Positions 1 through 5,522 of a DNA stretch of 5,522 nt are shown in pieces. The DNA is taken from the IMG/VR virus record IMGVR_UViG_2667527792_000001, positions 1 to 5,522 of that record; one strand, written 5' to 3'. The notes beneath the pieces are model-generated. The model was not told the DNA's origin and ran no database searches. It was given only the letters and a program-made list of their open reading frames with translations. The DNA comes from a virus (Duplodnaviria > Heunggongvirae > Uroviricota > Caudoviricetes). The translations under genes were made by a program, and so were the position numbers. How positions within the stretch are numbered: the stretch's first letter is position 1; each line of letters begins with the position of its first letter.

Positions 1-657
1 ACCGACTATTTGCAACAGTGCCGTGTACATCGAAATACGGCTTATCAGGCGTTAAAAGATGCTTGCGATGACTTGTTTGCAAGACAATTCAGTTATCAGA
101 GTCTTAGTGAAAAAGGTAACACTATTAATCACAAATCAAGATGGGTGAGCGAGGTGGTGAAAAAACGCGGTGACCTCCTCGACCTCGAACCAGACAGCTT
201 CGATCAAAACATTGCCATTAACACCCGCGCGCCGTTCTTCCTTGCTCAGGCATTCAGTAAGCGCTTACTGGCACAGCCGAAACCGGAAGCGGAGCTGCCG
301 CACCGCTCGATTATTTTCGTCAGTTCCATCAACGCCATCATGCTGGCGATGAATCGCGGCGAATACACCATTGCCAAAACCGCCGTTTCTGCCGCTGCTC
401 GTCTGTTTGCTGCTCGCCTTTGTAATGAACAAATTGGCGTTTATGAAGTGCGCCCTGGTCTCATCAAAACCGATATGACTATTCCGGCAACGGCTTATTA
501 CGACGAACTGATTGCCAAAGGTCTGGTGCCGTGGGGACGTTGGGGTTATCCGGCTGATATTGCTTCCACTGTCCGCGCGATGGCGGAAGGTAAACTGATT
601 TACACCTGTGGTCAGGCGGTCGCCATCGACGGCGGCTTAAGTATGCCGCGCTTCTGA
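1..657 (+). CDS. Short-chain dehydrogenase/reductase (SDR) family oxidoreductase, 5'-partial (frame is open to the window edge; stop TGA at 655-657)
   Basis: Frame 1 is open from base 1. The translation has SDR hallmarks: a Ser in FVSSINAIM about 14 residues before the catalytic Y-x3-K (YTIAK), then the PG motif region (VRPGLIKTDMT) and a C-terminal IDGG. The NAD(P)-binding N-terminus is outside the window. Specific enzyme not identifiable by eye. Confidence 0.7.
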   Translation, partial: TDYLQQCRVHRNTAYQALKDACDDLFARQFSYQSLSEKGNTINHKSRWVSEVVKKRGDLLDLEPDSFDQNIAINTRAPFFLAQAFSKRLLAQPKPEAELPHRSIIFVSSINAIMLAMNRGEYTIAKTAVSAAARLFAARLCNEQIGVYEVRPGLIKTDMTIPATAYYDELIAKGLVPWGRWGYPADIASTVRAMAEGKLIYTCGQAVAIDGGLSMPRF

Positions 658-703
658 GGCTGAATCATGAGAGATCTGTTACAACGCCCGGATTTATTCA
701 GTA

Positions 704-988
704 TCAATACCGCAACACTGGGCTATAAAACGCCGCTACNAACAGCGCCTTGTTATAGTTGTCCAGATCGCGGATCCGGTTATCCGGAGGAAACAACACG
801 ATCTCCACTGAAGCTGGTGCCGACGTTGGTTTCGGCAGACGGCGTAACTGCTCAATGATGGCGGCACACGCCGCGCCCTGGAATTTACGCCCCGCCGCGC
901 TTATCAGGCTCTTACCTGCAAAAGCCCCTTTGTTGGGGTGTCGCCAGTACGTGTTCACGCTGGGGGGAAACGGCAGGATCAGCTTCAT
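704..988 (-). CDS. rusA: RusA-family Holliday junction resolvase, C-terminally truncated (94 codons; probably an inactive remnant)
   Basis: N-terminus LILPFPPSVNTYWRH and the motif RIRDLDNYNKA parallel E. coli RusA (ITLPWPPSNNRYYRH; RRRDLDNLQKA). Similarity stops about 12 residues after the DLDN motif, and the ORF ends at residue 94 with no equivalent of the third catalytic Asp. Both other frames hit stops immediately. ATG at 988-986 overlaps the upstream stop (ATGA). An ambiguous base (n at 740) falls in codon 83. Confidence 0.75.
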   Translation of the reverse strand: MKLILPFPPSVNTYWRHPNKGAFAGKSLISAAGRKFQGAACAAIIEQLRRLPKPTSAPASVEIVLFPPDNRIRDLDNYNKALXVAAFYSPVLRY

Positions 989-1311
989 ACTTTCAGCCCC
1001 CTCTCATGTAACCAGTGGGCTGCACGCAGCCTGCCGTTTTCCTCACCGGCAAGCAGTGCGCGGATAATCCCGACCGCCTCGCTGTCGTCGTCCTTCACCG
1101 CGGTATGAAGCGTTATCCCCCGGGCCACGCCACGCTTTATCGTGATGACGCCTTTTTTCTCCAGTGCGCGAAGATGCTCTACCGCTGCATTCACTGAACG
1201 GTATCCCAGCATGGTTGCCACCTCCTGATTAGTTGGCGGGAAGCCACGTTCTTGCTGGTAAGAAATCAGCATATCCAGCACCTGCTGCTGGCATTGAGTT
1301 AACGTCGTCAT
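985..1311 (-). CDS. LexA N-terminal DNA-binding domain homologue (winged HTH), lacking the S24 peptidase domain
   Basis: MTTLTQCQQQVLDMLISYQQERGFPPTNQEVATMLGYRSVNAAVEHLRALEKKGVITIKRGVARGITL aligns closely by eye with the E. coli LexA N-terminal domain ([68 protein letters not shown]). The protein is only 108 aa and has no Ala-Gly/Ser/Lys peptidase module. ATGA overlaps at both ends (1308-1311 and 985-988). Confidence 0.7.
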   Translation of the reverse strand: MTTLTQCQQQVLDMLISYQQERGFPPTNQEVATMLGYRSVNAAVEHLRALEKKGVITIKRGVARGITLHTAVKDDDSEAVGIIRALLAGEENGRLRAAHWLHERGLKV

Positions 1312-1961
1312 GCCGCCATCTCCCTGACCAGTTTTTCCGCCTGCTGGCGAACCTGCACCAGAAACGCCTCACCACATGCCTCAAGTTCATCGCGCCCGAT
1401 GTAGCTGATTGCCGGTCCCTTCCAGGTCTTGTCGAAAACAGCAATAGCACCAGCGAAGAAAGCACCTGTCGGCACCTGCTTCTCGTCCTTCGGGATAAAC
1501 CAGGCAGGCAGTTCAAAACCAATACGCCCGCGAATAAAAGCAATATGGTCCGCATCTTCCGGCCACCACACTTCACTGGTGGCAGCTTTGATCAGGAAAA
1601 CATAGCGCCCGCCTTTATCACGCATGGCACTGGCATGTTTCATGATGTAACGCATGCCGGTGATGTATTGCCCCTCATGCTGACTGGCGCGGCTGTATGG
1701 GGGATTACCAAAGGCAGCACCTTTAAGCTCCGCAAGGCGTTCTGACCAGTCATGCGCCAGCGCGTTGTCTTCCGCCGTGTAATACGCGGCACATTTGGCG
1801 TTATCACCGTCAGTGAACAGATCCAGAACAAACGGGCCAAACAGGGTGTTAATTCCCCAGAAAATGTTGTCCGGCGTGCGCCACTGATCGCCCACTTCCT
1901 TCAGTTCATGGGCTGGTTTGTTCCGCAGTTCCACCAGTGCCTGACAATATTTATTACTCAT
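1308..1961 (-). CDS. Phage Dam-family N6-adenine DNA methyltransferase
   Basis: Contains the amino-methyltransferase catalytic motif NPPY (AAFGNPPYS); length and organisation fit the phage Dam family. Start chosen at ATG 1961-1959 (MSNKYCQ...), preceded by GGGGG 4 nt upstream; an in-frame GTG at 1994 is an alternative start. Stop overlaps the next gene's ATG (ATGA at 1308-1311). Confidence 0.8.
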   Translation of the reverse strand: MSNKYCQALVELRNKPAHELKEVGDQWRTPDNIFWGINTLFGPFVLDLFTDGDNAKCAAYYTAEDNALAHDWSERLAELKGAAFGNPPYSRASQHEGQYITGMRYIMKHASAMRDKGGRYVFLIKAATSEVWWPEDADHIAFIRGRIGFELPAWFIPKDEKQVPTGAFFAGAIAVFDKTWKGPAISYIGRDELEACGEAFLVQVRQQAEKLVREMAA

Positions 1962-2152
1962 TAAGCCCCCACGTAATTCCCTGACAGATACCACTCTTCA
2001 CCCGATGCAGCGCGCTTGCTGCTTTTCTGTAAGCACTGCTCACGACGCGCCAGAAAATTGTTTCGTTCTGGCTGGGAGTGGCTTTCACGGAATACCGCCA
2101 TCCACACGGTTGCAGCACGACGGTATAAGCCCCTGGACTCCAGTTCTTCAGC

Positions 2153-2449
2153 CTAGCGGGTCAGGCACAAAATCACCCGTGGATCGTTAGTGCCGACATA
2201 GAAATTGCGCACAGGTCTGGTTTCTCGAACTGGTTGTGGTTCCGGTTCCTGCGCTCTCTCAGTCAGGCGCGGGAAATGTCTGCGTGTATCTCCTTCACAA
2301 CGGTGAGCCACACGCCCACTCTGACGTAACTTGCTTGCTGACTGCAGAACGCGCTGCCGTGAGTAACCTGCAAAAGCATCCGCAATGTCTCCGGAAGTAC
2401 ATCCCGGATGGGCTTCAATGAATTTCTGAACTTCATTCAAAAGACTCAT
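2153..2449 (-). CDS. Hypothetical small protein (possible winged-helix fold); may be the N-terminal part of an amber-interrupted gene
   Basis: ORF starting at ATG 2449-2447 (MSLLNEVQKFIEAHPGCTSGDIADAFAGYSRQRVLQSASKLRQSGRV...), immediately after the replication gene stop (TGA 2454-2452). Ends at TAG 2155-2153, with the same frame staying open for 46 more codons downstream. No family recognised. Confidence 0.4.
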   Translation of the reverse strand: MSLLNEVQKFIEAHPGCTSGDIADAFAGYSRQRVLQSASKLRQSGRVAHRCEGDTRRHFPRLTERAQEPEPQPVRETRPVRNFYVGTNDPRVILCLTR

Positions 2450-2451
2450 GA

Positions 2452-3393
2452 TCACCCCCTGAATCCTGCCGGGATCTGGCTGTAGTCCACGTTGTCGTAA
2501 CTGGATTTGAAGTACGGGTCTTCGCGTTTTTCGGTGTACGTGCTGACGGACGGTGATAAGCGCAGGGAAAGCTCATCCCATTTTTCCCGCAACTTCGACG
2601 GGCTGAGCACGTTACGGCACCAGAACGGATCGCGGCTGACGCGGCTGTACATCTCGCAGATTTGTTTGTGAGTACGACCATCCTGCACACACATCAGGCG
2701 AATTTCGTTTGCCCAGGCTGTCCAGTTCGGTTCTTTGGGACGAACCACCTCGCCGTCACATTCGGCGGCTTGCTCGTACAGGGCGATGATTTTTTTCCAG
2801 AGCCACTGTGCGCAGGTCAAATCATCCTGCGTTCCCCACTGGCGCTTTTTAGGGCTGAATACAACCGCATCAGGATGGCGAGTTAAAAAATCCTGTTCAT
2901 CCGTCTGCGTGTCCGGTTGCGAAGCGTCCGGACGAGAAGGTTTTTTATCTGACGGATCATGTTTTGATTTTACTGACGGATCCCCGCCAGATTCTGACGG
3001 GTGAAAACCCGCTTTTTTGCCAGATTTCGACGCATCAAATTTTGACGGGTCAGATTTTGATGCGTCAGATTTTGACGGGTCAGAATCTGGCAGTTGAGAA
3101 AATGCCGCTGCCTGAAGCTTCGCAACGTTAAGCTGATAAACATTCGACGCATTGCGGTTACCCTGGCGACGCGCCTTACGCGTTAACCAGCCTTCTGCTT
3201 CCAGCCGTGCGATAGCCGTCCTGACGGTACTCATCCCCGCGCCAATCTGACGGGCAATAGTTTCAATTGATGGCCAGCACACACCTTCGTCATTACTGAA
3301 ATCAGCCAGGCGGGCCATAATTGCCACGCTGGATAATTTCATGCCTGATGCAGCGCAACCATCCCATACATAGCCGGTTAATTTAGTGCTCAT
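2452..3393 (-). CDS. Phage replication initiation protein (lambda O-like): N-terminal HTH DNA-binding domain, repetitive Ser/Asp/Pro/Lys linker encoded by the iterons, C-terminal domain
   Basis: The N-terminal ~90 aa (SSVAIMARLADFSNDEGVCWPSIETIARQIGAGMSTVRTAIARLEAEGWL) resemble the HTH domain of phage replication initiators. The central region DSDPSKSDASKSDPSKFDASKS is encoded by tandem 15-bp DNA repeats, as in lambda O where ori lies within the gene. ATG 3393-3391 is preceded by AGAGG. Confidence 0.75.
   Translation of the reverse strand: MSTKLTGYVWDGCAASGMKLSSVAIMARLADFSNDEGVCWPSIETIARQIGAGMSTVRTAIARLEAEGWLTRKARRQGNRNASNVYQLNVAKLQAAAFSQLPDSDPSKSDASKSDPSKFDASKSGKKAGFHPSESGGDPSVKSKHDPSDKKPSRPDASQPDTQTDEQDFLTRHPDAVVFSPKKRQWGTQDDLTCAQWLWKKIIALYEQAAECDGEVVRPKEPNWTAWANEIRLMCVQDGRTHKQICEMYSRVSRDPFWCRNVLSPSKLREKWDELSLRLSPSVSTYTEKREDPYFKSSYDNVDYSQIPAGFRG
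2946..3095. repeat. Iteron array (candidate origin of replication) inside the replication initiator gene
   Basis: Five tandem 15-bp units at 3021-3095 (consensus about CAGATTTTGACGGGT; 3036-3050 and 3066-3080 differ at one position). A further 14/15 copy lies at 2988-3002, and two more TGACGG cores sit near 2950 and 2974. T-runs flank the array. Confidence 0.55.
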
Positions 3394-3402
3394 GACCGAC
3401 CT

Positions 3403-3741
3403 CTATTTCCCTGAATTTACGACGAAACTGTTCGAGCGGGCTGAAGCACTCATGCTCATAGCCTTCGCGGAGGTAGATAACTCGTTGTGTTTCCGGCTCC
3501 CAACGAATGACTCTGACGGGCACTCCGTAGTGATCTTTGAACCAGCGGTTAACTTGTCGCAAAGGACTGTCTCCTTCTGCCGGTTGAAATCACCCACAGC
3601 CCACTCAGCAAAGCTGTGGGTTACAATTTCCCTGTCACCTGGTACATTAACTGCATAGCAATACTCCACCTTCGCTTTTCCACCCGGTACAGGAAGCGCA
3701 ATCAGTTGCGAGCGACGGTAGTGTGTTGTTAAACTGTTCAT
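3403..3741 (-). CDS. Hypothetical protein (112 aa)
   Basis: Co-oriented ORF in the operon; its ATG at 3741-3739 overlaps the upstream stop (ATGA at 3738-3741) and its stop TAG (3405-3403) sits 9 nt before the replication gene start. No recognisable family; the C-terminal third is low-complexity, so a frameshift or a shorter true product is possible. Confidence 0.4.
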
Positions 3742-4346
3742 GCGTTAGTTTCTCCACAGTCACGACACGCCACGGCGCCCGGAGCTGCACACTCGCGGGC
3801 GTCATTACTTTCTGAAATGCAAAAGATTTTGTAGACCAGTGCTGCATGCTCCTGCAGCTTCGAAATTGAGAGATACAGCTCGTCGTTAATTGCTGTCTTC
3901 TCATGCGGTTCCACCACACCGTCTTCGATTGCCGAACGAATCTGTCTGGAATAACTGCCAATCTGTTCAATGACTTCCAGCAGGCGCTGGTTAATATCGG
4001 CGTTGTCCACATCCTCGACGTCAGGAAGAGACACAAAGACGCCATTTGCAGACTGCGCCACAGCGTCAGCAATGAAGTGAGTTCCACCAGCACGTTGCAA
4101 AATCATTGCCCATCCCAGCGGGAAAATCTGATCGCCATCGGCACGAAGGCGGTTAAATAATGCGTTTTCTGTTACATCCAGCCAGTCAGCTGCTTCAGCG
4201 TAACCACCCGGCAACGCTGCGATAGTTTTTCTGACAGCTTTCACGTACCACTCAGGCTGTTTTTCTACTTTCCAGTGATGCTTACCCACGGTTAGCCTCA
4301 TCGTTCTGTGGTTTCTGTTAATCGATTTATCCATTAGATTTTTCAT
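3738..4346 (-). CDS. CII-like / YdaT-family phage regulatory protein (putative)
   Basis: Sits immediately downstream of the Cro-like gene, the position held by CII/YdaT-type regulators in lambdoid prophages; about 200 aa. Start is uncertain: ATG candidates at 4346, 4334 and 4301, all with weak RBS, and the ORF track's GTG at 4403 overlaps cro. Family assignment rests on position and general character, not a confident motif match. Confidence 0.5.
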
Positions 4347-4527
4347 AAAGCTCAGGTTTAAATGGCAACCGTCCGCAAGTTCTATATGCAGCTTCTGCTG
4401 CACGTCCTTTTGGAATTAACTGGCCCGGACGGTTTCGCCACTGATAAACGGCTTCAGTTGTTATGCCGAAAAAAGCAGCAACTTTCTCAATACTGCCGAA
4501 GTAGCTTTCGATATCGTCAGTTGTCAT
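4327..4527 (-). CDS. cro: Cro/YdaS-like HTH DNA-binding protein (lytic-side regulator of the immunity switch)
   Basis: 66-aa protein divergent from the CI-like repressor. HTH segment IEKVAAFFGITTEAVYQWRNR is typical of Cro/YdaS-type proteins. ATG 4527-4525 is preceded by GGAGGG. Confidence 0.7.
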   Translation of the reverse strand: MTTDDIESYFGSIEKVAAFFGITTEAVYQWRNRPGQLIPKGRAAEAAYRTCGRLPFKPELYEKSNG

Positions 4528-4624
4528 ACGCCCTCCAAGCTAAGTTTTATTAGATGCTAATTACAAATCTATCTTTGGTCAATAAAAACTAAGATTACTT
4601 AGCAATTCAAGAAATGGTGCTCCT
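4528..4624. promoter_or_regulatory. cI-cro intergenic immunity switch with two 14-bp operator-like palindromes and divergent promoter candidates
   Basis: Sites CTAAGTTTTATTAG (4540-4553) and CTAAGATTACTTAG (4589-4602). A leftward promoter candidate for cro has -35 TTGACC (complement of 4577-4582), a 17-bp spacer and -10 TAGCAT (complement of 4554-4559), placing the first site over the start region and the second just upstream of -35. The rightward cI promoter is less clear (for example TTACAA 4561-4566 with TAAAAA 4583-4588). Confidence 0.55.
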
Positions 4625-5251
4625 ATGGAAACGGTTGGTCAGCGTATAAAAGCTCTGAGAAGAGTTACCGGAACGTCCCAGAAAGAATTGGGTAAATTTT
4701 GTGGAGTAAGCGACGTTGCTGTGGGGTACTGGGAGAAAGACATCAATACCCCTGGTGGGGAGGCACTTTCGAAATTAGCGAAGTTCTTCAATACGTCAAT
4801 AGATTACATTCTTTATGGTGCTGAGTTTGAAGGCAAACTCGTCACAAACATGCGCAGAGTTCCTGTAATATCGTGGGTTCAGGCTGGGCAGTTTACTGAG
4901 TGCAGGGCAGCAGAAGTGTTTAGTGAAGTGGACAAGTGGGTAGATACATCATTAAAGATTGGTGATAACTCATTTGCATTAGAGGTTAAAGGTGACTCCA
5001 TGACTAACCCTAATGGCCTCCCAACAATACCAGAAGGCGCAACAGTGATTGTAGATCCAGATGCAGAACCTCGTCATGGAAAAATAGTCATCGCTCGACT
5101 TGATGGAACAAACGAAGCTACAGTAAAAAAATTAGTCATCGATGGCCCTCAAAAGTTTTTAGTGCCATTAAATCCTCGGTATCCCAACATCCCTATCAAT
5201 GGTAATTGCCTTATCATTGGTGTAGTCAAAGGAGTTCAATACGAACTCTAA
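4625..5251 (+). CDS. cI: CI-like prophage repressor (XRE-type HTH plus LexA-like S24 peptidase domain; predicted RecA-stimulated autocleavage)
   Basis: N-terminal HTH (TSQKELGKFCGVSDVAVGYWE). C-terminal S24 module with an Ala-Gly cleavage site (VQAG, A87-G88), catalytic Ser in GDSM (S125) and Lys in TVKKL (K168/169). Divergent to cro across a 97-bp intergenic region. Confidence 0.85.
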   Translation: METVGQRIKALRRVTGTSQKELGKFCGVSDVAVGYWEKDINTPGGEALSKLAKFFNTSIDYILYGAEFEGKLVTNMRRVPVISWVQAGQFTECRAAEVFSEVDKWVDTSLKIGDNSFALEVKGDSMTNPNGLPTIPEGATVIVDPDAEPRHGKIVIARLDGTNEATVKKLVIDGPQKFLVPLNPRYPNIPINGNCLIIGVVKGVQYEL

Positions 5252-5273
5252 GACCTCTCTTCTCTAACTAAGG

Positions 5274-5306
5274 CACCGAACTAAGAAAAGTTTGGTGTTT
5301 TCTCTT
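5274..5306 (+). terminator. Candidate intrinsic terminator downstream of cI
   Basis: Stem CACCGAAC (5274-5281) pairs with GTTTGGTG (5290-5297): 8 bp including one G-U, 8-nt loop, followed by TTTCTCTT. The stem is modest, so confidence is low. Confidence 0.3.
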
Positions 5307-5316
5307 GCCATAATAA

Positions 5317-5330
5317 CTAAGTTAAGTTAG
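5317..5330. promoter_or_regulatory. Third copy of the operator-like palindrome, downstream of cI (OL-like candidate)
   Basis: CTAAGTTAAGTTAG matches the CTAAG-N4-nTTAG pattern of the two intergenic sites. It lies in an AT-rich stretch with -35/-10-like hexamers (TTGCCA 5305-5310; TAGATT 5328-5333). Confidence 0.4.
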
Positions 5331-5522
5331 ATTTTATATCAAAGATAACGAACAGGCAGGACGCCCACGAAGTAGCCGCCGGTGGCGTATGAATGACCGG
5401 ATTGNNTCNNTNNNTGGAAATCAGCCAATGATTCGCGTTCGCCTACCAGAATGACTTTCAGCTTCAATGGCATCGAAGGCACAGAGACGGGGAGAGGGCG
5501 CGACTCATCAAACGCAACCCAG

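Follow-up and report, generated by a model that had tools for sequence, protein, structure and literature searches.

The replication origin of phage lambda lies inside the initiator gene O, in the part coding for the inter-domain linker: four annotated iterons (gene nucleotides (nt) 349-433, residues 117-145), 18-bp dyad-symmetric sites spaced 20-24 bp, are followed directly by an AT-rich stretch, the most AT-rich 40-mer beginning 3 nt past iteron 4 (nt 436) at 80% AT, and O forms a module with the adjoining gene P. Intragenic repeat arrays in lambda O, in gene 18 of P22 (four repeats of ~20 bp) and in gene 18 of phage L (six repeats of 11 bp) have been treated as origins, those of P22 and L being read as such from sequence (PMC8022706). 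In P22 and L the initiator gene is accompanied by one for a DnaB-type helicase (gene 12). Iteron plasmids and P1 oriR also have a winged-helix initiator, tandem iterons and an adjoining AT-rich stretch, the plasmid iterons lying outside the rep gene and the Rep proteins belonging to other families. GATC sites occur in the unwinding region of P1 oriR and of oriC. In this study a 5,522-nt stretch of viral DNA (IMG/VR record IMGVR_UViG_2667527792_000001, positions 1 to 5,522; hereafter the window) was analysed, in which an array of short repeats lies within a lambda-O-like initiator gene on the minus strand. The segment 2911-3099 is probably the vegetative replication origin of a temperate phage of the e14/SfII/SfIV type, located within the linker-coding part of its own initiator gene. 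An iteron-type origin is supported by four independent comparative lines. The data show that the repeats are under selection as DNA and are inherited together with the N-terminal domain of the initiator, and that they lie where lambda has its iterons, with an AT-rich stretch beside them. A described origin for SfII, SfIV, SfV or e14 was not found in the literature, the SfIV genome paper describing none, and a paper on the replication regions of non-lambdoid Stx phages deals with other modules.

An earlier note on this DNA had placed an iteron array at 2946-3095, coordinates which proved accurate to within a few bases. The array (2947-3099) holds eight 15-bp units, read on the coding (minus) strand in the register S-D-x-S-K as TCT-GAY-SCR-TCA-RAW (consensus drawn from 559 units in 71 genes); four units stand head to tail and directly adjoin a degenerate fifth, and the other three are separated by spacers. 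The earlier description is correct except in the spaced copies, of which three exist where it had named at least one. Tandem Repeats Finder reported 3021-3084 either as 4.3 copies of period 15 (81% matches) or as 2.1 copies of period 30 (88%), and a repeat search recovered the same family together with the spaced copies and strong inverted symmetry. With up to two mismatches allowed, TGACGGGTCA had 13 matches (4.3 expected), and with up to one mismatch GAYSCRTCARAW had 12 (0.82 expected), 11 of them within 2947-3085; none of 200 shuffles reached either count, and chance origin of the repeats is therefore excluded. The array spans amino acids (aa) 99-149 of the 313-aa initiator and encodes ...PDSDPSKSDASKSDPSKFDASKSGKKAGFHPSESGGDPSVKSKHDPSDKK...; the units encode PDSDPSKSDASKSDPSKFDASK...HPSESGGDPSVKSKHDPSDKK, the SDPSK/SDASK linker which had been correctly assigned to an O-like gene.

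Each of the four tandem units (U1-U4, Table 1) contains the near-palindrome TGAY-SC-RTCA, which is the core of all eight units, and the units are dyad-symmetric as a whole (TCTGAC-SS-GTCARA). The array is bracketed by the inverted repeat GCCAGATTCTGAC / GTCAGAATCTGGC, a further inverted repeat (I3) pairs 2986-3007 with 3070-3091 at 86% complementarity, and the spaced unit U5 with the following TCTGGCGG makes up the palindrome CCGYCAGA-A-TCTGGCGG. The region folds far better than shuffled sequences, both as RNA (-55.9 kcal/mol, z -6.2) and as DNA (z -6.6). Dyad symmetry and folding would both agree with dimer binding of the kind seen with lambda O.

A scan of one genome per species identified 76 loci with the N-terminal domain (58-100% identical), ranging from Escherichia to Proteus, Providencia, Yersinia, Pantoea and Rahnella, and a codon alignment was made of 72 distinct homologous genes across Enterobacterales. 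In every intact gene 2-7 SDxSK units are retained, and F[HD]P[SP]ESGGDPSV.S..DPS comes after them. Repeat-free homologous initiators, which the earlier note had named as a refuting observation, were not seen: all 72 homologues with the N-terminal domain keep the repeats, as do the phage records inspected directly, SfIV and phiNP. Conservation at codon positions 1, 2 and 3 was 0.87, 0.92 and 0.54 in the N-terminal domain (aa 2-97), as is usual for coding DNA, and 0.84, 0.87 and 0.80 in the linker (aa 99-161). At conserved residues the commonest codon accounted for a fraction of 0.92 in the linker (1.8 codons per column) compared to 0.53 in the N-terminal domain (3.8 codons per column; Mann-Whitney p 7e-12). 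For gene pairs 70-80% identical in the N-terminal domain, the same codon was used for the same residue at a frequency of 0.81 in the linker and 0.37 in the N-terminal domain, while amino-acid identity ran the other way (0.55 against 0.75); by the same-codon measure the linker lay above the N-terminal domain in 2555 of 2555 gene pairs. GAT, TCA, GTA, TTT, GAA and AAA each form single-codon columns, non-synonymous replacements are frequent in the linker (for example TCA to CCA or TTA, and CAC to GAC), and third-position drift returns to normal past codon ~162. Since silent sites are nearly frozen while the linker protein changes faster than the N-terminal domain, selection acts on the linker DNA and not on the protein, which is the signature of a cis-acting DNA element.

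The gene's most AT-rich 40-mer (70% AT compared to a gene mean of 47%) directly follows the main array, and the AT maximum is at the same place in 60 of the 72 homologues. Spaced units U6 and U7 overlap this stretch and each carries a GATC arising from a GAT codon that is fixed in all 72 homologues, whereas the corresponding Asp is mostly encoded by GAC in the tandem units; in U6, GAT, TCA and GTA are each the sole codon used in the 72 genes. Most linkers contain two or three GATC sites, against none or one in the part of the gene coding for the N-terminal domain. No promoter was found in or near the array and no DnaA box within it, and Rfam returned no family match (a sub-threshold microRNA match only, E 0.63).

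Comparison of relatives indicated that the array travels with the N-terminal domain. Citrobacter phage phiNP shares this N-terminal domain and the array (period 15, 4.3 copies), joined there to an unrelated C-terminal domain, and most of the 72 genes have still another C-terminal domain type. Conversely, phage mEp460_4F5 has the same C-terminal domain from SRPDASQPD on, with a different N-terminal domain and a different, 23-bp array. More distant N-terminal relatives (43-64% identical) carry other repeats at the same site: TGAACCTTCAGAATC in 4.1 copies in a Stx2a phage (64%), two arrays in Klebsiella phage Kp4866-6 (59%) and a GC-rich 24-bp unit in 2.9 copies in phage 24B (43%). Across the 5.3-kb loci the motif was restricted to the linker, save for one outside match in each of two loci (L029 and L032). 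Array and N-terminal domain thus behave as one specificity module, whichever C-terminal domain follows, and the comparison argues for the earlier proposal that this initiator has a specificity distinct from that of lambda O.

The gene product matched PHROG 391 ('replication initiation O-like') with E 4.9e-135 and was 31% identical to lambda O by BLASTP over aa 70-277 (E 3e-26), which bears out its earlier designation as O-like; it was also 98% identical to the SfIV 'primosomal/replication protein'. The BLASTP alignment puts the lambda iterons at aa ~107-137 here, inside the array, and this position, together with the constraint on the DNA, supports the suggestion that the origin lies inside the initiator gene as in lambda. 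The locus resembles ori-lambda in having the array in the linker-coding part, at least four dyad-symmetric sites, an AT-rich region directly downstream, a specificity module and constraint at the level of the DNA; the C-terminal domains are homologous, and the gene lies downstream of cro-like and cII-like genes and opposite a cI-like repressor gene. Unlike in lambda, the 15-bp units stand head to tail, there are eight sites in place of four, two of them lie inside the AT-rich stretch, and two carry invariant GATC. The N-terminal domain also differs, being assigned to HTH_36, with weaker Pfam matches to GntR, MarR, DnaD_N and RP-C; Pfam gave no lambda-O-type model for it at E up to 0.01, and BLASTP gave no significant alignment with the first ~70 residues of lambda O, the sole significant segment beginning at aa 70. 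A PDB sequence search with this domain returned marginal MarR and PaaX matches only. As in the gene 18 modules of P22 and L, an initiator distantly related to lambda O carries its own repeat family inside the coding region, but the repeats are unrelated and the initiator here stands alone. The plasmid pattern of a Rep_3, RepA or TrfA-type initiator with iterons outside its gene does not apply, the array being intragenic and the RP-C match falling below threshold (E 0.0048; 17.2 bits against a 24.4-bit cut-off).

An adjoining helicase or loader gene, as in the lambda O-P module, is likewise lacking: neither the window nor the gene tables of the three relatives consulted (SfIV, phiNP and the prophage of strain ECONIH5) show a P, DnaB or DnaC-type gene beside the initiator gene. 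Here a PerC/YfdN-like gene takes the place of P. The order PerC/YfdN-like, Dam, LexA-like, RusA follows the initiator gene in the window, SfIV and ECONIH5, and a methyltransferase gene follows it in phiNP. Lambda O also ends differently from this initiator, whose last residues resemble the extreme C-terminus of host DnaT (Table 1); similar tails occur in relatives with other C-terminal domains (phiNP, ...NSGFRS; Kp4866-6, ...IPRGFRG; ST64B, SQIPTGFRG). As a lead, the tail may recruit the host helicase, no P-like gene being present, and it may account for 'primosomal protein I' annotations.

The main alternative to an origin is an array that is under selection as DNA and binds a protein, be it the initiator or some other, yet serves as an autoregulatory operator, a transcript roadblock, a copy-control (handcuffing) site or the boundary of a recombination module. 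Constraint on the DNA and dyad symmetry would suit any protein-binding array, and the repeats do sit at the mosaic junction of the N- and C-terminal modules. A role of this kind is nonetheless distinctly unlikely, given that the position matches the proven iterons of lambda, that the AT-rich maximum of the gene follows, that linkage to the DNA-binding domain of the initiator is strict, and that the O-cro region of the window showed no second repeat cluster. A constraint acting on the mRNA is very improbable, whether through a coding-region hairpin that slows or regulates translation or through a +1 frameshift giving a 140-aa protein with the N-terminal domain only. The folding energy of the RNA would agree with it, as would an A6 run followed by a small hairpin at 2998-3020 and the many database proteins of ~140 aa which pass from the repeats into an alternative frame ending in GIRQ and a stop. 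However, hairpin potential is an automatic product of tandem palindromic units, and loop and spacer positions are among the conserved bases. Programmed frameshifting to a 140-aa isoform was rejected: only 20 of the 72 genes have the A6 run, and the frame switches fall at many different points within aa 88-128, a scatter that mutations or sequencing errors would produce.

Two further explanations concern the coding capacity of the region. If the repeats were a low-complexity protein linker produced by replication slippage, with no function as DNA, then in-frame units, a linker rich in Ser, Asp, Pro and Lys and a copy number of 2 to 7 among relatives would all be accommodated, but synonymous sites should drift freely; the reverse was observed, with silent sites frozen while residues change, and the synonymous-site analysis led to the rejection of this explanation, which is extremely unlikely. 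The synonymous conservation could in principle also come from an overlapping gene, and an open reading frame (ORF) of 60 aa does span the repeats in the window (2970-3152, minus strand). The frame has no ATG in 29 of the 72 homologues, and its open length varies from 0 to 125 codons. Conservation also extends to all three codon positions, more than dual coding would call for; the ORF was rejected as an explanation, and we attach almost no likelihood to it.

If 2911-3099 is the origin, loss of the repressor would lead the cro-side operon to express the 313-aa initiator, the N-terminal winged-helix domain of which, probably as dimers, would bind the eight dyad-symmetric 15-bp sites (four or five tandem and three spaced). 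The nucleoprotein complex may then destabilise the neighbouring AT-rich stretch (40 bp, 2935-2976), where two of the sites lie with their invariant GATC, and the lambda-O-like C-terminal domain and the DnaT-like tail would together bring in the host DnaB helicase. A phage P-type loader would not be involved, since the initiator gene has no such gene beside it. Origin activity, like initiator binding, unwinding and the recruitment of the helicase, is a step which we infer from the comparative data. Several points weigh against this interpretation. The synonymous-site statistics ignore shared ancestry, though both regions compared share one tree, and the N-terminal fold is taken solely from Pfam matches, the AlphaFold model of this domain (10-sequence alignment) being of low confidence (mean pLDDT 60.5). 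The AT-rich stretch reaches 70% AT compared to 80% in lambda; a 15-bp spacing would set neighbouring dimers on nearly opposite faces of the helix (estimated at ~10.5 bp per turn), unlike the 20-24 bp of lambda; and the loader gene being absent, the helicase-recruitment step is conjecture. The searchable literature yields no binding, footprint or replication data for this initiator family.

A bolder version of the proposal, which we consider unlikely, is that of a P-independent ('initiator-solo') lambdoid origin, in which the DnaT-mimicking tail recruits the host helicase and firing is gated by Dam methylation or SeqA at the two invariant GATC-bearing sites within the unwinding region. Cryptic prophages of E. 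coli, e14 among them, often carry initiator N-terminal fragments ending at aa 78-80, and as a corollary these might be kept as origin-specific decoys which prevent incoming relatives from replicating.

The annotation of the array is sound, concerns an element of a known kind and brings no surprise; the accepted picture of lambdoid replication is unchanged. It does give a precise origin candidate for a replication module that 301 of 5426 complete E. coli genomes carry and that occurs as well in Shigella serotype-converting phages and in prophages across Enterobacterales. Such an origin map is useful for checks of prophage annotation, for marker-frequency measurement of induction and for phage-derived replicons, and a module without a helicase loader could serve the study of how an O-type initiator recruits DnaB without P.

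Phage DNA makes up only 741-5402 of the window and is ~99% identical to the early region of the prophages in those 301 E. coli genomes. Positions 157-739 correspond to a chromosomal 3-ketoacyl-ACP reductase / sugar isomerase locus, and positions 1-156 resemble a plasmid Rep3-type gene and look like a Rep fragment. At the other end the prophage match stops at 5402, the final 120 bases (5403-5522) lying outside it. Ns stand at the joins (739 and 5405-5413), and the join at 740/741 interrupts the RusA gene. Given these flanks and the Ns at the joins, the window is a chimeric draft. The initiator and repressor genes are intact in it, and the cI-like repressor would hold the rightward operon and the initiator off. 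The module is present in the phage records of SfII and SfIV (Shigella phages, ~98% identical to the phage part in DNA), Kati and phiNP, and by N-terminal protein match in those of YeP2 and KpF5. In the complete genome of strain ECONIH5 the same module lies within a full-length prophage at icd, beside the e14-type excisionase gene xisE. SfIV is described in its genome paper as being without a Dam gene; the window has a phage Dam gene downstream of the initiator. The features of the locus are listed in Table 1.

Table 1. Predicted features of the initiator locus and flanking phage genes (window coordinates).
Feature	Position	Strand	Details
Iteron U1	3070-3084	-	Head to tail with U2-U4; TCTGACCCGTCAAAA
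Iteron U2	3055-3069	-	TCTGACGCATCAAAA
Iteron U3	3040-3054	-	TCTGACCCGTCAAAA
Iteron U4	3025-3039	-	TTTGATGCGTCGAAA
Degenerate fifth unit U0	3085-3099	-	TCTCAACTGCCAGAT; its CCAGATTCTGAC is the outer arm of an inverted repeat with U5
Spaced iteron U5	2992-3006	-	TTTCACCCGTCAGAA; near-invariant synonymous sites across 72 genes
Spaced iteron U6	2971-2985	-	GGGGATCCGTCAGTA; invariant GATC at 2979
Spaced iteron U7	2947-2961	-	CATGATCCGTCAGAT; second invariant GATC at 2955
AT-rich stretch, candidate unwinding element	2935-2976		Overlaps U6 and U7
DNA-constrained segment	2911-3099		Codons 99-161; taken as origin extent
Initiator gene	2452-3393	-	313 aa, lambda-O-like
N-terminal winged-helix DNA-binding domain	3100-3393	-	aa 1-98, presumed iteron reader; Pfam HTH_36, E 4.3e-11, aa 23-70
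C-terminal domain homologous to that of lambda O	2560-2901	-	aa ~165-278; BLASTP; PHROG 277, 2357
C-terminal tail SQIPAGFRG	2455-2481	-	8/9 residues match the extreme C-terminus of E. coli DnaT (SQIPPGFRG)
cI-like repressor	4625-5251	+	HTH_3 and peptidase S24 (Pfam); gene order as in SfIV
cro-like gene	4327-4527	-	Pfam P22_Cro, E 4.4e-11; first gene of the operon reading through initiator and candidate origin
cII/CP76-like gene	3738-4403	-	
Small ORF	3403-3741	-	
PerC/YfdN-like gene	2153-2455	-	Next after initiator
Dam gene	1308-1994	-	
LexA-like gene	985-1311	-	
RusA gene, cut	704-988	-	

A number of minor observations were made. The PerC-like gene has a C-to-T change at 2155 (CAG to TAG, codon 101 on the minus strand) which leaves 100 aa in place of the 164 aa in SfIV and ECONIH5; the change may be a genuine nonsense mutation or come from an error in sequencing. 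Between the tandem and the spaced units, a terminator-like hairpin, CGGGTGAAAACCCG then CTTTTTTG, lies at 2998-3020 on the plus strand, antisense to the initiator gene. The public proteins of ~140 aa (P0013, P0036 and others) consist of the initiator shifted +1 within the repeats (...QNLTRQNL...GIRQ and a stop), always ending at the TAA from GTA-AAx; their scattered switch points suggest mutations or errors in the sequencing of homopolymers.

In the most diverged lineages (L072, L073 and L080) the core TGAC-NN-GTCA has become TGAA-NN-TTCA or TGAACGTTCA, both half-sites changing together so that the dyad is kept; in L072 and L073 the changed core was located in the linker, at about 2810-2900. 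Across the alignment, the third bases of the D/E and x codons formed complementary pairs in 213 of 463 cases (190.6 expected), a suggestive excess which comes from these few lineages and is not relied on. In L072 and L073, Ile also replaces the otherwise invariant Arg58 of the helix-turn-helix region, while L080 retains Arg58, a sample too small for covariation.

When the first 101 aa of the initiator served as the query for protein homologues, most matches were truncated or fused proteins and not distant relatives. Among ~120 database proteins sharing the N-terminus, 74 stop matching exactly at aa 78-80 (~3154-3160, initiator codons 78-80), ~60-70 bp ahead of the array, and run into at least 13 different partners, including RusA, terminase, HNH-like and tail-fibre-like sequences and an internal join to SRDPFWCRNV. 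The left end of this break is fixed and the right ends vary, the DNA there reading GCCAGGGT|AACCGCAATGCGTCGAAT. The terminase-fused protein is 99% identical to the initiator over its first 79 residues; two E. coli genomes (L057 and L077) encode this initiator(1-79)-terminase fusion of 455 aa, which we take to be YmfN of E. coli K-12 e14 (initiator fragment plus terminase fragment), and, unlike in the window, a deletion in them has removed the candidate origin together with all DNA as far as the terminase gene.

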